From contig CBDVDR010000001.1 in the NCBI GenBank assembly GCA_965372795.1, positions 256,001 to 320,000 of the forward strand: DNA of 64,000 nt, written 5' to 3'. The notes beneath the pieces were generated by a model. It was not told where the DNA came from, made no database searches, and saw only the letters and a program-made list of their open reading frames with translations. Shown here piece after piece: positions 15,695 through 57,327 of the stretch (position 1 is the first letter of the stretch; each line of letters opens with the position of its first letter). A program made the position numbers and the translations under genes. Source of the stretch: an uncultured bacterium. Its GTDB lineage: Bacteria > Zixibacteria > MSB-5A5 > GN15 > FEB-12.

Positions 15695-16432
15695 CTATAT
15701 TTTATTTATTTTTTTCAAATCCTGCACGGTATCAATTGAAACCGTTTCCATCCTGGTCTTATATAATTTTAATACGTTTCCATTTTCAATAATGCGAAGC
15801 TGTTCCAGTGATTCTGCTTTCTCATTTTCAGACTGTCCCCATTTGGCAAATTTCAATATCCCCGCACGGGTGAAAAAGTAAATTCCGATATGACTGTAAA
15901 ACTTATGCTGATCGGTTCGGTTTCCGGTACTATAATTCTGTAAATATGGTAATGGGTATCTTGAAAACCAGATCGCCTCAGCTTTTTCGTTACCTACTAC
16001 TTTCACTGTATTCGGATTGAATAATTGATCTTCATCTTTTATCTGCTTAATCAATGTCCCATAATCCGACTTCTTATCGTTGCAAAACTGATCAATATAA
16101 CGATCAAGCACTTTTGCCTTAATTCCAAAATTATCTGCCTGTACATTAAGATAACAATCAGCCTTTACCTTCTTTGCAACTTCGGCTAATCTGTCAGAAC
16201 CGGTTTTGTGTCGCCTGGATGTTACGACAACCTCGGCTCCAAATTCTTCGGCTGTACTTTTGATTTTTTTGTCATCAGTAGCAATAATTACCCGGTCAAT
16301 CTGGTTACTTTTGGAAAGCGATTTCCAGACATAATAAAGAAGAGGTTTGCCCTGAAACAAATGAAGAACTTTGCCCTCAAACCGTTTTGAGCCTAACCTC
16401 GCCGGAACTACAGCAACAATTTTCCTTTTCAT
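15695..16432 (-). CDS. kdsB: CMP-KDO synthetase (3-deoxy-manno-octulosonate cytidylyltransferase)
   Basis: PARLGSKRF, TGSDR, PNTVKVV, FSR, HIGIY, ESLEQLR; directly upstream of pyrG. Confidence 0.88.
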   Translation of the reverse strand: MKRKIVAVVPARLGSKRFEGKVLHLFQGKPLLYYVWKSLSKSNQIDRVIIATDDKKIKSTAEEFGAEVVVTSRRHKTGSDRLAEVAKKVKADCYLNVQADNFGIKAKVLDRYIDQFCNDKKSDYGTLIKQIKDEDQLFNPNTVKVVGNEKAEAIWFSRYPLPYLQNYSTGNRTDQHKFYSHIGIYFFTRAGILKFAKWGQSENEKAESLEQLRIIENGNVLKLYKTRMETVSIDTVQDLKKINKI

Positions 16433-16619
16433 AATTGAACAACTCTCAATAATAATCCAAAATCTGTTTCTGAAACAGAGTTTATCGTAGGTAAAGGTTT
16501 GGAATTATTACAGTTAACACCACTTTTAGGGGGTAGTTGTACTTGATTATGATGGGATAATTGAAATCCGGTAAGCTTTGCTATCAGACCAACCTGTAGC
16601 TTTTTGTGCCGCATAAGCT

Positions 16620-16648
16620 ATAATATGTACACCCCTTAACTCTGTCAA
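16620..16648 (-). promoter_or_regulatory. sigma70-type promoter for kdsB-pyrG
   Basis: Minus strand TTGACA-N17-TATTAT. Confidence 0.6.
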
Positions 16649-16706
16649 GAAAAATTGACTTTTCCAACTCGGGAATCCCAATTCACCGGGAATCTCAATT
16701 GATTTC

Positions 16707-16733
16707 TAAAGCTATATACAGTACTGCCGATAT
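16707..16733 (+). promoter_or_regulatory. sigma28 (FliA/SigD)-type promoter
   Basis: TAAA-N15-GCCGATAT, 38 bp upstream of ATG 16772 (RBS GGAG). Confidence 0.65.
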
Positions 16734-16771
16734 ATTTCTTAGACGTCCCAAATTGAAACAATGGAGAATAA

Positions 16772-18145
16772 ATGACTGTTAAACAGTTCCAATATGAACC
16801 AGAGCAATCCGAAATTGCTTCTTCACATCCCAAAAACAACCGGTTTCCAATTGAAACAAAACACCTCAAAGAAAACACTTCATTTATTGAACCGATGTTA
16901 TTTGGGCTGTTGGTGAGAGGTTGGTTAAGTGATCGATCCAAAGAATTTATAGATCGCTTGGCTCCTGAGAATTCTATCTCTTTTATTATTTCCGGAGATA
17001 AATATCTCGCCCCGGAGGATGTTACCCTTTTCCCGCATGAGTTGATTGAAACTGCGATCAATGAAAACACTTCGGCTGTATTTTCACACATCTTCAGACC
17101 ACGATCCAATTTTACTCATAATTACATGATTACAACTGCTACCATAAATCCCGGTGACAAACATCCCGTTGTTTTTGGTATTTTAGGTCCCGACGATGTT
17201 CTTTCCAATCCTTTGCAACAGGAAAGATTCCAGGGATATGTTGCAAAATTCCGTACAGCTTACCAATCCGCAAAAAAAATGGCTGAAAAATTGGATGAAC
17301 ATATCAATTCAACCAAACCTACAATACTGGTTAACCGTAGTTCCGGTCGGGTTCTTTATGTAAACTCTTCCCTTGAACAAATAGTTAGCATGAATTTACG
17401 TGAATTGGTACATCTTGAGTTCAACCAGATTAAAGAGCTCTTCCCCGATCCGACTCTTTTTGGCAAACTAATTCTACAAAACTATTCCTCAGATAATTTT
17501 CAAATTTCTGTGATGTCATTTAACAAAGAAACTCTTAAATCACCTTCCCCAAATAGCCCAACCAGATTTCTGCTTGATAAAATATCCATGGGAGTTTCAA
17601 ATATTTCCAAAACGGGTTTCATCCTTGAGAAAAACCTGTCGGAGTTTGATAATGAATCAACAAATCACCTGGCAGCCGCAATTAACAATCAGACAAAAAA
17701 TCTTCAACCGGTTATTCAAATGCTCGATGACATCATCGAACGTAAACCTTCGCAAAAAAGAATCAATCTTTTGTATGAACTTGACAAAGCTATTCAGCAA
17801 AAAGGCGATGATTATGCTATCCAACTCCATTCAAAAGTAAACAACTTATATCTTAAGGCAGACCTGACTGCGTATAGAATTATTTTTTCAGCGGTCCTGA
17901 ATTCACATCTTAAAGGGAAAGAAACCCCCTCATCAACGACTATCACGGTTGATAAAACAAATTTCCTAAGTGAATTTAATATCCATTTCAATTCCTCGTT
18001 TAAAGAAGTCAATGATGGTCTGGAATTATCAGACTGGAATGAATTTGCACATCAGATATGTCGAGAAAATAAAGTGATTTTAAAAAATATGATTAATAAA
18101 AAAACAAATAAACTTGTCACCACCCTAACAATTAAGACTGATTGA
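16772..18145 (+). CDS. Hypothetical protein; probable degenerate PAS-containing histidine-kinase-like protein
   Basis: PAS-like TILVNRSSGRVLYVNSSLEQI; HisKA/HATPase-like layout without H, N or G boxes; overlaps next gene by 4 bp. Confidence 0.55.
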   Translation: MTVKQFQYEPEQSEIASSHPKNNRFPIETKHLKENTSFIEPMLFGLLVRGWLSDRSKEFIDRLAPENSISFIISGDKYLAPEDVTLFPHELIETAINENTSAVFSHIFRPRSNFTHNYMITTATINPGDKHPVVFGILGPDDVLSNPLQQERFQGYVAKFRTAYQSAKKMAEKLDEHINSTKPTILVNRSSGRVLYVNSSLEQIVSMNLRELVHLEFNQIKELFPDPTLFGKLILQNYSSDNFQISVMSFNKETLKSPSPNSPTRFLLDKISMGVSNISKTGFILEKNLSEFDNESTNHLAAAINNQTKNLQPVIQMLDDIIERKPSQKRINLLYELDKAIQQKGDDYAIQLHSKVNNLYLKADLTAYRIIFSAVLNSHLKGKETPSSTTITVDKTNFLSEFNIHFNSSFKEVNDGLELSDWNEFAHQICRENKVILKNMINKKTNKLVTTLTIKTD

Positions 18146-19599
18146 AAGAAAATATGCTCTTAGATACAACCACAAAAACCACATCTATATTAATAGTTGA
18201 AAATCCAGCCGACCAAAATACCAGCATCCTTGCTCAACTGCGTGGCTCTGATTACCGCTTGATGAGAACTGACTCAATGGAGTCGGTTGTAAGTGTGCTG
18301 GAAAATGAAGAAGTTGAAATGTTAATCTGCAATCTTTCAAACTTTGATGAAAATAGCTGGTCAACTCTTGACCGCGCCAAAAGAAAACACCCTCTGGTAG
18401 ATTTTATCATTATTTCTGAAAATTCAATTGAATGGGATAAGAATAGCCGGTTAAATGAAGAAGGCGAATTTTTAAGCTCTCCAATTTCAACAAATCAGCT
18501 GTTGGCTACAATTAAAAGAATCGCACGACATCAAAATGTCAGAATGGAATTATTAAATCTTAGAGGCAGAATGGCAATGTCTTATGGGTTTGATAATATT
18601 ATTGGCATCTCCAAACCGATTTCTGACCTTAAAGAAACAGTAAACAAAATTTCACCTACGGATATAAATGTTTATCTCATTGGTGAATCAGGTACCGGTA
18701 AAAAACAACTGGCGCATACAATTCATTATCATTCAAAACGTAGAATGAACTCCTTTGTAATGGTCGATTGCTCGATTATACCGGAATACCTGCATGAAAA
18801 TGAAATATTCGGAACTTATTCCGTAGCCAATCAACTGGCTAACTCAAATAGACTGAATCTAACATCGTCAAATATTAATTCTCCCTTTCAACAATCAGCT
18901 CTTGAAAAAGCTAACGGTGGAACTCTTTTTATAAATGAAATCCACCGCCTCACCCTTCCCTGCCAGGGAAAACTTATAAAATTCCTCCAGACATTTGAAA
19001 TTACCGGGTCCACCCACCAAACTTCATTCAAAGCCGATATTAGAGTAATTGCATCAACCGGAACTGATATTGAAAGTTTAGTTGAGCAGGGATTGTTTTT
19101 AAAAGAGTTACACTACTTATGCAATGTTTTTCCAATTGAAATGCCAACCCTTTCTGAGTGCAGTGAAGATATTGAACTTCTGGTAGATTATTTTCTGCGA
19201 AGAATCTCATTTGAAATGCAAACCGGTTCTGTGACAATCTCAAGACGGGCAATGGAAAAACTTCATAATTATAACTGGCCCGGAAATGTCAGAGAACTTG
19301 AAAATACCCTCCAGCGCTCTGCCGCTCTTTGCCGGGAGAACTTAATTGAAGCTGAGGATATCCGATTTATTTCATCCTCGTTCACTAAACCCAAAAGACT
19401 AAAAGCTAATAATGAAACTAAAACGATAAGTAAAACATCGTTAGCTGATAATCAAAAAACCATTATCAAGAAAGTTCTCGAAGAGAATCAATGGAATTTC
19501 ACTCAATCAGCCCAGGAATTAGGCATTGGACGAACCACGCTCTGGCGCAAAGTAAAAAAATACCAATTAAAGCGTCCGCCGGAAACCACTGAGGAATAA
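18142..19599 (+). CDS. NtrC/Fis-family regulator (receiver-AAA+-HTH) with degenerate motifs
   Basis: GESGTGK, ENEIFG, GGTLFINEI, WPGNVRELEN, Fis HTH AQELGIGRTTLWRK; no GAFTGA. Confidence 0.85.
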   Translation: MKENMLLDTTTKTTSILIVENPADQNTSILAQLRGSDYRLMRTDSMESVVSVLENEEVEMLICNLSNFDENSWSTLDRAKRKHPLVDFIIISENSIEWDKNSRLNEEGEFLSSPISTNQLLATIKRIARHQNVRMELLNLRGRMAMSYGFDNIIGISKPISDLKETVNKISPTDINVYLIGESGTGKKQLAHTIHYHSKRRMNSFVMVDCSIIPEYLHENEIFGTYSVANQLANSNRLNLTSSNINSPFQQSALEKANGGTLFINEIHRLTLPCQGKLIKFLQTFEITGSTHQTSFKADIRVIASTGTDIESLVEQGLFLKELHYLCNVFPIEMPTLSECSEDIELLVDYFLRRISFEMQTGSVTISRRAMEKLHNYNWPGNVRELENTLQRSAALCRENLIEAEDIRFISSSFTKPKRLKANNETKTISKTSLADNQKTIIKKVLEENQWNFTQSAQELGIGRTTLWRKVKKYQLKRPPETTEE

Positions 19600-19647
19600 T
19601 TACGTATAAATAATTAAGAAGACTGACTTTAATGAAGGACTAACAAA

Positions 19648-20088
19648 TTGACTGAGTTATTTGCAACTTACCTTGAAGCTATAAAAGAAAAACTCGATTT
19701 TGATAAATGTGTATTGATTGTTCGAAAAAACGGGAATCTGGCTGCAATCGCCACCTGGGATAACAATATTTTCCATGAAGGCTTATCAATCTCACTTCCC
19801 AATGATAATTCATTTTTCCAAAATATCGTAAATAGTAAAAAAAACTATATCAGCAATGATTGCTCAACTTTTGAAGGAAACTTCTTTGAAAGAAAACTTT
19901 TACTAAACGATAATTCACAATCCTGTATGATTCAACTTCTGGATTCTGATAATGAAGTTGTTGGCTTGATCGGCTACAGTTCATCATGCAAAAATGCCTT
20001 TGATAATGATTCTATAAATTATGTTCTGAGCCTTGGTAATGAATTTATTCAAAAAGTAGAAACCATGCTCGAAAAGACTGCGGTATAA
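19648..20088 (+). CDS. Small GAF-like domain protein
   Basis: Pattern DKCVLIV...SCMIQLL...EVVGLIGYSS...AF resembles a GAF fold; RBS AAGGA, TTG start. Confidence 0.5.
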   Translation: MTELFATYLEAIKEKLDFDKCVLIVRKNGNLAAIATWDNNIFHEGLSISLPNDNSFFQNIVNSKKNYISNDCSTFEGNFFERKLLLNDNSQSCMIQLLDSDNEVVGLIGYSSSCKNAFDNDSINYVLSLGNEFIQKVETMLEKTAV

Positions 20089-21078
20089 CTATTTATCGCT
20101 ACTGCGAATTCTTTTAATAGCACGATTATGTTCAGCATTAGACTTGGAAAAATAATGCCCGCCCGTATTATCAGCTACAAAATATAAAAAGTCGGTCTTT
20201 TCAGGTGAGATTGCCGCTTTGATTGACTTCTCCCCCGGTGAATTTATCGGTGTGGGCGGTAATCCTTTTCTCATATAAGTATTATACGGCGAGTCTTTTC
20301 TTAAATCTTTTTTCCATAATGGTCGATCCAAACCCCCTAAACCATAAATAACCGTCGGGTCTGCATCAAGTCTCATATTTCGATTTAACCGGTTATGATA
20401 GACTGATGAAACTCGGCTGTGTTCGCTATTTAATCGAGTTTCAGCTTCAATGATAGATGCCATTATTATAACCTCTTCCCGACTAAGATTATTCGGAATG
20501 TCCTTTTGCCAAATTGTATCAGTAACGGTATAAAACATTGTTATCATATCACTCAACACATCCTCAACCGAAGCCCCATAAGGGAAAAAATAAGTTTCCG
20601 GATACAGATACCCCTCAAGCGAAGGAATTTTCTTACTTTTTAAAAAAGCGGCTTTGACATTGAGGGCAACAATTTGCGCCGAATCAAAACCCATTTTCTC
20701 CTGCAATATTGCAGCTGTCCCCCAGATAGGCATTCCTTCCGGGATTGTAACTTTAATTTTGAGAAATTCTGCCTTCTCAAGTTTACTTAAAACTGATTTA
20801 CATGAATTTTTACCGGTAAATGGATAACGTCCCGGAGTAAGCTTTTTGTCGACACCATTCAAACGAGCAAAAATTTTTATCACCAATTTTGACCCGATCA
20901 CTTTTTTTTCAGCTAAGATATTAGCAATGCGATTAAAATTATCGCCCTGCTTAATATCAATATGAACAACCCGATCCGAAATATCATAATCCTGATTATA
21001 AGCCATGAACCCATACCCGACTAAAATTACAATCAATATTACAATACCGCTTATTATTTTTTTTAAATTACTGCTCAT
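20089..21078 (-). CDS. mltG: Endolytic transglycosylase MltG
   Basis: TIPEG, LEGYLYPETY, MASIIEAE, LDADPTV, SPYNTY, GLPPTPI. Confidence 0.95.
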   Translation of the reverse strand: MSSNLKKIISGIVILIVILVGYGFMAYNQDYDISDRVVHIDIKQGDNFNRIANILAEKKVIGSKLVIKIFARLNGVDKKLTPGRYPFTGKNSCKSVLSKLEKAEFLKIKVTIPEGMPIWGTAAILQEKMGFDSAQIVALNVKAAFLKSKKIPSLEGYLYPETYFFPYGASVEDVLSDMITMFYTVTDTIWQKDIPNNLSREEVIIMASIIEAETRLNSEHSRVSSVYHNRLNRNMRLDADPTVIYGLGGLDRPLWKKDLRKDSPYNTYMRKGLPPTPINSPGEKSIKAAISPEKTDFLYFVADNTGGHYFSKSNAEHNRAIKRIRSSDK

Positions 21079-35987: not shown

Positions 35988-36389
35988 ATGACGACTAAAA
36001 ATAATAACAAATATAAGATATTTTTCCGCTATCATTTTCCTCTAATTATATATGCCGCAACAGTTATCATTCTTTCTTCAATCCCCGAACTGGGGATAAA
36101 GAAATTTCGTTTTCTATTTGTTGATAAAGCTGCACATTTTGTAGAATATGCCATTTTATCGGCCTTAACTTTCCGTTCATTTTACCAAATATTCCACAAA
36201 GACAATATCAATAAAGCACTTATCCTATCCGGCGCCTTTTTAATCGGGTTTGCTACTTTTGATGAAATTTACCAGAGTTTTATTCCCGGTCGTCATTCTG
36301 ATATCTATGATTTAGCGACAGACATTTTTGGTTCATCTTTGGTACTAATCTTGCTTCAATACCGTTATAAAAGATTGAATAAGAGCTGA
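35988..36389 (+). CDS. VanZ-family membrane protein
   Basis: DKAAHFVEYAIL, DEIYQSFIPGR, D...D. Confidence 0.85.
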   Translation: MTTKNNNKYKIFFRYHFPLIIYAATVIILSSIPELGIKKFRFLFVDKAAHFVEYAILSALTFRSFYQIFHKDNINKALILSGAFLIGFATFDEIYQSFIPGRHSDIYDLATDIFGSSLVLILLQYRYKRLNKS

Positions 36390-36421
36390 TTAACAGTAAT
36401 TATGTTAAATACTCAGAGGTG

Positions 36422-51773: not shown

Positions 51774-51789
51774 TGCAAAAATAATGCCA
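51774..51789 (-). promoter_or_regulatory. sigma54 (-24/-12) promoter
   Basis: Minus strand TGGCAT-TATTT-TTGCA, exact GG-N10-GC spacing. Confidence 0.7.
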
Positions 51790-57300: not shown

Positions 57301-57327
57301 TAAAGTTCCTGTAATATTAACCGATAT
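57301..57327 (+). promoter_or_regulatory. sigma28-type promoter
   Basis: TAAA-N15-ACCGATAT upstream of the lipoprotein gene (RBS AGGAGG). Confidence 0.55.

Follow-up and report, generated by a model that had tools for sequence, protein, structure and literature searches.

An intact Zixibacteria operon joining a histidine-kinase-fold protein without kinase motifs to a degenerate enhancer-binding protein

The DNA analyzed here (the window; 64,000 nucleotides, positions 256,001 to 320,000 of contig CBDVDR010000001.1, GenBank assembly GCA_965372795.1) comes from an uncultured member of the Zixibacteria and carries, between kdsB and mltG, three co-oriented and intact open reading frames (ORFs) without a frameshift, here called A, B and C. 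Gene A (16772..18145, + strand, ATG start) encodes a 457-aa pseudo-histidine kinase. Gene B (18142..19599, + strand, TTG start), overlapping A by 4 bp, encodes a 485-aa degenerate bacterial enhancer-binding protein (bEBP) of the NtrC/FleQ-like type, and gene C (19648..20088, + strand, TTG start) a free-standing GAF-like protein of 146 aa, the stop codon of which abuts that of a convergent mltG-like ORF (20089..21078, - strand). This layout agrees in every respect with a preliminary description of the locus. A is predicted to be a histidine-kinase-fold protein that cannot be a kinase and does not bind ATP, and B to be unable to receive a phosphoryl group at the canonical site or to contact sigma-54 through its L1 loop, and to be without the residues for hydrolysis. 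As the operon has been kept intact here and in many relatives despite these losses, it probably now works via partner and DNA binding alone. We consider it likely, with a probability of roughly 60%, that the module is a binding-controlled "atypical enhancer-binding protein" (atypical EBP) needing neither phosphorylation nor sigma-54.

To place the operon among its relatives, 72 related loci were fetched, with all of the genomes compared being metagenome-assembled genomes and the motif states being taken from automatic alignments. B was complete in 70 of these loci; of the remaining two, one is truncated by the end of its contig and the other gave no B match. The operon was found in the same genomic slot with open frames in 70 of the 72 loci. 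Where B is complete, it is directly preceded by an A-type ORF in 69 of 70 loci and directly followed by an ORF of at least 120 aa in 61. The gene order pyrG–kdsB (opposite strand), A–B–C and mltG–ruvX (opposite strand) was kept in the first 20 loci, bar losses at contig ends. Members of the A family are present in 98 of 104 genomes of the taxonomic family to which the window belongs; a second family in the order has more divergent members in 15 of its 31 genomes (E ≤ 1e-12).

Pfam identified no significant family in A, with neither HisKA nor HATPase_c being found (PAS at 0.1), and the sequence on its own had no match among solved structures (best E 0.06). A belongs to a coherent, unannotated family, five relatives at ~35% identity being returned by one search and 151 cluster representatives at E ≤ 1e-3 (138 at ≤ 1e-10), nearly all of ~455–480 aa, by an exhaustive one. 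A profile of this family (104 full-length members) aligns its DHp and early CA regions to ZraS (5e-9) and HK853, with PAS-domain matches at positions 161–220. The AlphaFold2 model of A, with the family alignment as input, has a mean pLDDT (predicted local distance difference test score) of 88.7. It places a GAF-like domain at residues 30–145 (16859–17206), a PAS domain preceded by a long helix at residues 184–251 (17321–17524), a DHp hairpin at residues 263–322 (17558–17737) and a lidless CA-like alpha/beta domain at residues 329–455 (17756–18136), all on the + strand. Searching with this model, Foldseek returned WalK (2e-16), LOV-HKs, HK853 (~3e-9) and a plant phytochrome kinase-related domain, as well as NifL of the NifL–NifA complex (9qq6_A, 1e-9) and DivL (4q20_B). 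The N-terminal domain folded alone (pLDDT 90.1) was GAF/PHY-like; its VIA Z values (phytochrome GAF-PHY, 10.0; Nlh1 GAF, 9.0; NifA GAF, 8.5) are only moderately above the background of this tool (7–8), and Foldseek matches of the same domain were weak. A kinase-like fold is therefore present, and the PAS-like segment and kinase-like spacing first noticed in A correspond to a GAF-like–PAS–DHp–CA fold. Shortened forms of A occur in some lineages (L072–L076, L083 and L084; genera g5, g21 and g57), still directly 5' of B, these being ~300 aa without the CA domain, ~350 aa ending after the DHp hairpin or ~400 aa without the N-terminal GAF-like domain.

In the ZraS alignment, the column of the phosphorylated His is occupied in A by D269, within FLLDKISMGV, in keeping with the earlier statement that the H box of A has no His. 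Among the 104 family members, this column contains H in 42, D in 16, Q in eight and N in seven. No HATPase_c match was found by Pfam in any of the 104, and HisKA was matched weakly in eight. A 13-column stretch that carries the G2 box GLGL in outgroup orthologues is absent from every A of the window's family; this and the missing HATPase_c match bear out the reported absence of G boxes from A. The claim that the N box lacks its Asn fared less simply. Its placement differs between alignments, being N377 with ZraS (N in five of 104) and S378 with the outgroup orthologues, and the family conserves an Asn in neither column, which upholds the claim; the ZraS alignment nonetheless puts an Asn, N377, at that position in A itself. 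On the N-box helix, two to three residues past the Asn column, a His (H379, 17906–17908) is present in 96 of the 104 members. Eleven outgroup orthologues can be aligned across the CA domain (10 kinase-like with an H-box His, one without), and these have Ala, Gly or Leu in the H379 column; the His appears where ATP binding was lost.

B retains the domain order of an NtrC-type activator. Pfam identified PF00158 (Sigma54_activat, 8.3e-36) and PF25601 (AAA_lid_14, 5e-21), together forming an AAA+ domain with lid at residues 153–408 (18598–19365, + strand), and PF02954 (HTH_8, 4e-12) at residues 434–474 (19441–19563, + strand). The N-terminal pseudo-receiver (residues 13–125, 18178–18516, + strand) matched Response_reg only at 0.012 (16.2 vs a cut-off of 30.2 bits). 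NCBIfam places B among NtrC-family regulators with no equivalog cut-off reached (best 233 vs 795 bits). The closest solved relative is FleQ (9.4e-56), in an alignment which spans the receiver-like N-terminus, and VpsR was also matched (4e-39).

The preliminary description had noted that this receiver is without its acidic residues and phospho-Asp. This is correct, with EN at the acidic pair and N64 at the phospho-Asp, and the conserved Lys is also replaced, by Ser; a same-genus orthologue of B has Asp at the acceptor column. The degeneracy of B exceeds that first account, GAFTGA, Walker B and the Arg fingers being gone too. The GAFTGA loop is replaced by FGTYSVANQLANSNRLNLTSSNINSPFQQ, and L1 carries a 13-residue insertion (F223–Q251, 18808–18894, + strand). 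Asn has replaced the Asp of the Walker B DE, giving NE, and the FREDLYYRLN of relatives corresponds to FLKELHYLCN in B, with the loss of both Arg fingers (L and L for R and R). B retains Walker A (GESGTGK), the AAA+ scaffold, the lid, sensor II (WPGNVRELEN) and the Fis-type HTH, the motif LGIGRTTLWRK of which is invariant in 65 of 65 orthologues.

These losses can be set against the other bEBPs of the same genome, which encodes rpoN and 14 bEBPs besides B, scoring 186–250 bits to PF00158 compared with 124 bits for B. Walker B DE and both Arg fingers are present in all 14, and a GAFTGA-like loop in 13; because these paralogues keep the motifs, the losses in B are more than chance. A loop of the type G[AS][FY]T[GSTN]A is kept in 31 of 70 B orthologues, compared with the 13 of 14 paralogues.

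Of the three proteins, C shows the strongest conservation. Its Pfam matches, GAF_2 (6.6e-5; 23.6 vs 28.6 bits), GAF_3 (2.3e-4) and GAF (1.6e-3), all fall below the cut-offs. A profile of 19 C orthologues matched GAF domains of solved structures at 4.8e-4 to 3e-3, the best of them belonging to a sigma-54 regulator (3k2n). The protein is marked by the conserved motif F-x-GNFFERKLLL … S..P … VGL.G.SS … AF. Homology of C was checked in the first 20 loci, of which 18 have a homologue.

Upstream of the operon, a sigma-28 (FliA)-type promoter, TAAAG-N14-GCCGATAT, was identified at 16707..16733 (+ strand), ~40 nt 5' of the A start; the consensus for sigma-28/FliA is TAAA-N15-GCCGATAA. Under a relaxed definition, 45 of 69 orthologous loci have a motif of this type at the corresponding position, and under a strict one 37 of 69, compared with 0.009 and 0.0012, respectively, per 450 nt in the rest of the same loci. 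It occurs in lineages with canonical and with degenerate B alike. The window genome has a FliA/WhiG sigma gene (262.5 bits vs an NCBIfam cut-off of 189.6) as well as FlhA and flagellins. Its main flagellin gene has TAAAG-N14-GCCGAT upstream, and a CheW gene the strict motif TAAAG-N14-TCCGAT. Between the promoter and the A start lies a conserved leader block, TAGACGTCCCAAATTGAAACA (16740..16760, + strand), which is a candidate operator or 5'UTR element. Its core, [CT]CAANNTG[AG]AAC, was detected in 41 of the 69 loci (background, 0.003 per 450 nt) and lies 41–42 nt past the TAAAG of the promoter in 24 of the 25 loci holding both. The block resembles the FleQ box, given as GTCaNTAAATTGAC in the portions available of two reports (PMC8125075, PMC6120874), with a spacer one base shorter; this likeness offers a lead toward possible autoregulation.

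Other features were observed around this promoter and its like. A tandem direct repeat, CGGGAATCCCAATT / CGGGAATCTCAATT, 17 nt apart (16670–16700), lies just 5' of the sigma-28-type promoter; as a conserved operator it was rejected, CGGGAATCCCAATT being seen in none of the seven related upstream regions viewed. A second strict sigma-28-type motif, TAAAGTTCCTGTAATATTAACCGATA, occurs at window position 57301 (+ strand; G000 C1:313301), 59 nt 5' of an ORF of 345 aa whose N-terminus resembles that of a lipoprotein and which matches no Pfam family. Outside the window, at ~36200–36420 of G000 C11, the stretch directly 5' of a flagellin-family gene may, judged by eye, encode the C-terminal end of a CsrA-type regulator. 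The idea that the state of B is tied to loss of flagella was also rejected, as FlhA was found in 150 of the order's 154 genomes and the four lacking it are 81–94% complete; flagella are universal in the order and show no correspondence with the state of B.

The flagellar setting and the kinship of B with FleQ and VpsR raise the alternative of a nucleotide switch of the FleQ/VpsR type, in which, for example, cyclic di-GMP (c-di-GMP) would bind at the dead ATP site of B and set the balance between motility and sessile genes, with A and C as accessories. FleQ as the best solved relative, the VpsR match, the intact Walker A, the sigma-28-type promoter in a flagellated lineage and the likeness of the Walker B "NE" of B to the "ND" of VpsR all fit this idea. 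The c-di-GMP contacts of FleQ are listed as R144, R185, E330 and R334 in the part of the source available (PMC10723142). In B these correspond, with the numbering mapped by hand from the chain alignment, to D, H, Y and R. Because just one of the four is kept, c-di-GMP sensing of the FleQ type by B is less likely, and we regard a switch of this kind as an unlikely account of the module.

A second alternative takes B to be a poison subunit or decoy, which would join the rings of canonical bEBPs or block their enhancers and so damp sigma-54 transcription, with A and C tuning the effect. The retention of scaffold, Walker A, sensor II and HTH alongside the loss of catalytic residues is what such a subunit might look like, and the 14 canonical bEBPs and rpoN of the genome would supply its targets. 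HrpR/S reportedly provide a precedent for bEBP rings regulated by a partner, and partner regulation of a bEBP ring is likewise described for FleN/FleQ in the sections available of PMC10723142. There is no sign of a specific paralogue partner. In relatives, the orthologous protein is an ordinary activator acting on its own, the unchanged HTH suggests that B has kept sites of its own, and characterized EBPs without GAFTGA work directly at sigma-70 promoters. On these grounds, we hold this alternative to be decidedly unlikely.

The ancestral state of the pair can be judged from the second family of the order, whose A orthologues occupy the same genomic slot and have the H-box His, the N-box Asn and, in most cases, the G2 box GLGL. 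HATPase_c passed its cut-off in all three outgroup A proteins tested (26.8–54.2 vs 26.4 bits), compared with no match in four of four from the window's family. The B partners of the outgroup are fully canonical (DD/D/K, GSFTSA, DE and RR), and score ~420–435 bits to AtoC/NtrC models compared with ~225–233 for the window's B. As every A of the window's family is without the 13-column G2/lid stretch, ATP binding by the kinase was lost first, and once.

Motif states were tabulated for 71 rows (70 loci and the window). B is canonical and the A His kept in 24 rows, and B canonical and the His lost in six; B is degenerate and the His lost in 35 rows, the window included, and B degenerate and the His kept in three. 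Two rows have a partial B (GAFTGA kept, receiver site lost), and one has a degenerate B with A not called. The A His is therefore present in 24 of the 30 loci with a fully canonical B compared with three of the 38 scorable loci with a degenerate B. These states were read on a quick IQ-TREE phylogeny (LG+G4) of the four flanking genes pyrG, kdsB, mltG and ruvX, in which 32 of 68 inner branches have SH-aLRT support of at least 95 and many rows have under half of their columns filled; an initial tree of 21 rows gave just two well-supported independent pairs, and sampling was therefore widened to 71. On the larger tree the fewest changes required are nine for the A His, 11 for the receiver site, nine for GAFTGA, seven for Walker B and nine for the Arg fingers. 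Such parsimony counts cannot separate loss from regain; regain of entire motif sets seems unlikely. On average, GAFTGA and the receiver site changed in the same direction in 6.6 of seven independent well-supported pairs, with no pair going in opposite directions (median p 0.016), which supports joint loss of receiver site and sigma-54 loop within B. For GAFTGA and the Arg fingers, independent contrasts gave p 0.06. The coupling of the losses in B to that of the A His is consistent in direction, not significant and demonstrably not obligatory.

The preliminary description had spoken of concerted loss in both partners. Losses in the partners do go together, as the 24 of 30 and three of 38 attest; they were also stepwise and not strictly concerted, the ATP site having gone earlier, with the six and three rows above as exceptions. 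With canonical, intermediate and fully degenerate states on one tree, the order of events becomes readable, and the motif states can be read as loss of the kinase ATP site, then of the His, then of the receiver site together with the sigma-54 loop, and finally of the ATPase residues. One well-supported clade (L042, L052, L058, L061, L062 and L065) has lost the A His (T, N, E, E, E and D, respectively) with B fully canonical, and four of its six loci have no C-sized ORF after B. This clade hints that the His was dispensable after loss of the ATP site.

The same table bears on a third alternative, a cryptic phosphorelay, by which B would be phosphorylated elsewhere by another kinase or small donor, or in which Asp269 or His379 of A would take part in phosphoryl chemistry. 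It could draw on the unexplained presence of His379 in 96 of the 104 family members, on the Asp at the acceptor column of the same-genus B orthologue and on the perfect B receiver found beside a lidless A in 24 + 6 loci, where B must be phosphorylated by something other than the ATP site of A, or not at all. In the window, the acidic pair, acceptor Asp and Lys of B are all replaced (EN, N and S), A is without nucleotide-binding boxes, and B has also lost the ATPase and the sigma-54 contact that phosphorylation would activate. A phosphorelay is consequently a very improbable explanation here.

Selection on the three genes was compared between loci with degenerate and canonical B. Synonymous sites are saturated in nearly every pair (dS > 1 or undefined), which makes dN/dS values rough. 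Where defined, these are 0.08–0.48 (A), 0.085–0.29 (B) and 0.066–0.18 (C) in degenerate pairs, compared with 0.08–0.26, 0.04–0.07 and 0.07–0.19, respectively, in canonical pairs, so that constraint on B looks a few-fold weaker after degeneration. Between the window and its only same-genus relative, dN is 0.71 for A, 0.48 for B and 0.48 for C, with dS saturated or undefined. Open frames across saturated divergence and the invariant HTH argue against decay, and the earlier view that the operon is not decaying is upheld by intact genes in 70 of 72 loci, dN/dS of 0.07–0.48 at dS of at least 1, and the conserved promoter and leader. Slow pseudogenization, by which the genes would be non-functional two-component relics left open by chance, could appeal to the loss of every catalytic motif, to the 33% identity of A with its same-genus orthologue and to the truncated A of some genera, and is already largely refuted by frames intact across an order, dN/dS below 0.5 wherever defined, the HTH invariant in 65 of 65, the strongly conserved motifs of C, the conserved promoter and leader, and a degenerate state persisting in whole clades.

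Several observations weigh against the reading of A, B and C as a binding-controlled atypical EBP module. The proteins diverge fast, the window sharing 33% (A), 49% (B) and 46% (C) identity with its same-genus relative compared with ~90% for pyrG. The GAF assignment of C relies on sub-threshold matches, and C is missing or was not found in nine of 70 loci. The truncated A (~300–400 aa) of some genera could mean that A is perhaps dispensable in places. Of the losses, GAFTGA and the A His changed the same way in 4.3 of six pairs and in opposite ways in none, which is not significant (p 0.125); six loci combine a canonical B with an A without its His, and three a degenerate B with an A that has it. 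The strict sigma-28-type motif alone is unspecific, since among 20 ORFs checked (33 genome hits) the classic targets were flagellin and CheW only; the others include an HDOD protein and an SLT transglycosylase, with the rest looking unrelated. No convincing sigma-54 promoter (at least 9/11 to TGGCAC-N5-TTGCA) was found on the sense strand within 900 bp upstream of the operon's genes in the window and the first 20 loci. Of four low-scoring sites, two lie within the B coding sequence, one is on the opposite strand and one (9/11) is 5' of A in locus L023, where B is degenerate.

Taking these points together with the evidence above, the atypical EBP reading can be drawn out as follows. The operon would descend, by vertical inheritance in flagellated Zixibacteria, from one that encoded a cytoplasmic GAF–PAS histidine kinase, an NtrC-type sigma-54 activator and a small GAF protein. 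The chemical chain would since have been dismantled, leaving in A a dimeric DHp/CA scaffold and two sensor domains. B would be a DNA-binding regulator acting at non-sigma-54 promoters without ATP hydrolysis, like VpsR, TyrR and NtrX, with its activity set by protein contacts. A would touch B through the old kinase–receiver interface, as NifL does NifA and in the manner of DivL, and signals would enter through the GAF-type ligand-binding domains of A and C. Transcription from the sigma-28-type promoter would place the operon late in the flagellar and chemotaxis programme, and the leader block directly past this promoter would be a candidate operator for autoregulation. Sigma-54-free DNA binding by B, its contacts with A and C, sigma-28 dependence in vivo and autoregulation are what we infer. 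The suggestion in the preliminary description that the module now acts via protein interaction or ligand sensing would fit within this scheme.

A bolder proposal, which we put forward tentatively and would not yet expect to hold, is that, within a single order of flagellated Zixibacteria, one orthologous pair of kinase and sigma-54 activator has independently and repeatedly been turned, some nine or more times, into a module free of phosphotransfer, ATP hydrolysis and sigma-54, still under selection and sigma-28 control. If this were true, the scaffold would have a second role that does not rely on phosphorylation, already there in the canonical pairs and sufficient alone. A possible role would be a late flagellar checkpoint, in which the ligand-sensing pseudo-kinase and the free GAF protein gate a DNA-bound pseudo-activator, and the order would then hold a natural, replicated experiment in two-component systems becoming partner-switch regulators.

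A few further features of the window were noted. A sigma-70-like promoter (TTGACA-17-TATTAT, 11/12 matches) at 16620..16648 on the - strand is divergent from the operon, at the intergenic left edge, and faces kdsB/pyrG; the seven related loci viewed share its -35 block (TGTCAAG, + strand). A palindrome at 16459–16483 (AAAATCTGTTTC/GAAACAGAGTTT; 12-nt arms, 92% complementary, 1-nt gap) lies just 5' of the opposite-strand kdsB start. The best sigma-54-like site within the window is TGGCATTATTTTTGCA at 51774 (- strand), with 10 of 11 consensus positions and both GG and GC in place. An Rfam scan of 16300–20300 at E ≤ 1 gave two chance-level matches only.

Pseudokinases, pseudo-receivers, EBPs without GAFTGA and the NifL–NifA partner switch mean that each part of this module is already precedented. 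What is new is a cognate pair dead at every catalytic step, within a core operon, with canonical, intermediate and dead states in sister lineages. The best literature matches on two-component and sigma-54 regulation contain no mention of Zixibacteria, which is weak evidence of absence from print. The surviving function is testable against matched natural controls. If confirmed, the module would show phosphorelays evolving into binding-only regulators, and would represent the first motility-linked regulatory circuit for uncultured Zixibacteria.

The closest parallels to B are the atypical EBPs. In the parts available of PMC6158489, VpsR is described as having no GAFTGA, a Walker B of "ND" and no ATPase activity and as activating with sigma-70, and TyrR, HupR, HsfA, PhhR and NtrX are classed as atypical EBPs. 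The NtrC proteins of Caulobacter and R. capsulatus are likewise reported, in the available part of a preprint (bioRxiv 10.1101/2023.06.06.543975), to be without GAFTGA and to act at sigma-70 promoters. B shares with this group the bEBP domain order, the absence of GAFTGA and, with some members, a non-consensus Walker B ("ND" in VpsR, "NE" in B). Unlike them, B has also lost the receiver phospho-site and both Arg fingers, and its L1 has a 13-residue insertion, not a deletion. The present case further differs in that the cognate kinase-like partner A is itself dead and in that close same-slot orthologues of B are still canonical sigma-54 activators. With FleQ, whose REC domain is described as phosphorylation-incompetent in the excerpt available of PMC10723142, B has in common a receiver-like domain of this kind and a motility context. 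FleQ differs from B in keeping GAFTGA and an active ATPase and in acting with sigma-54, and its partner is a FleN-type ATPase, whereas that of B is a kinase-like protein.

The proposed relation of A to B resembles that of NifL to NifA, in which a PAS-containing kinase-like protein controls a bEBP by binding, with a GAF domain involved; for A and B such control is predicted. NifL still has a GHKL domain that binds nucleotide, and NifA carries a fused GAF domain and is active as a sigma-54 activator. In the operon described here, by contrast, A has a lidless CA domain, B is dead as a catalyst and the GAF domain forms a protein of its own. DivL, the ChrS pseudokinase variant, PsmA and ChpT resemble A in that their DHp and CA fold has no kinase chemistry and has been turned to recognizing proteins, with DivL keeping a full CA domain. 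A differs from these in that the ATP lid and G boxes are deleted across a whole bacterial family, with the His also gone in this genome, and in that its partner is a bEBP rather than a single-domain receiver.

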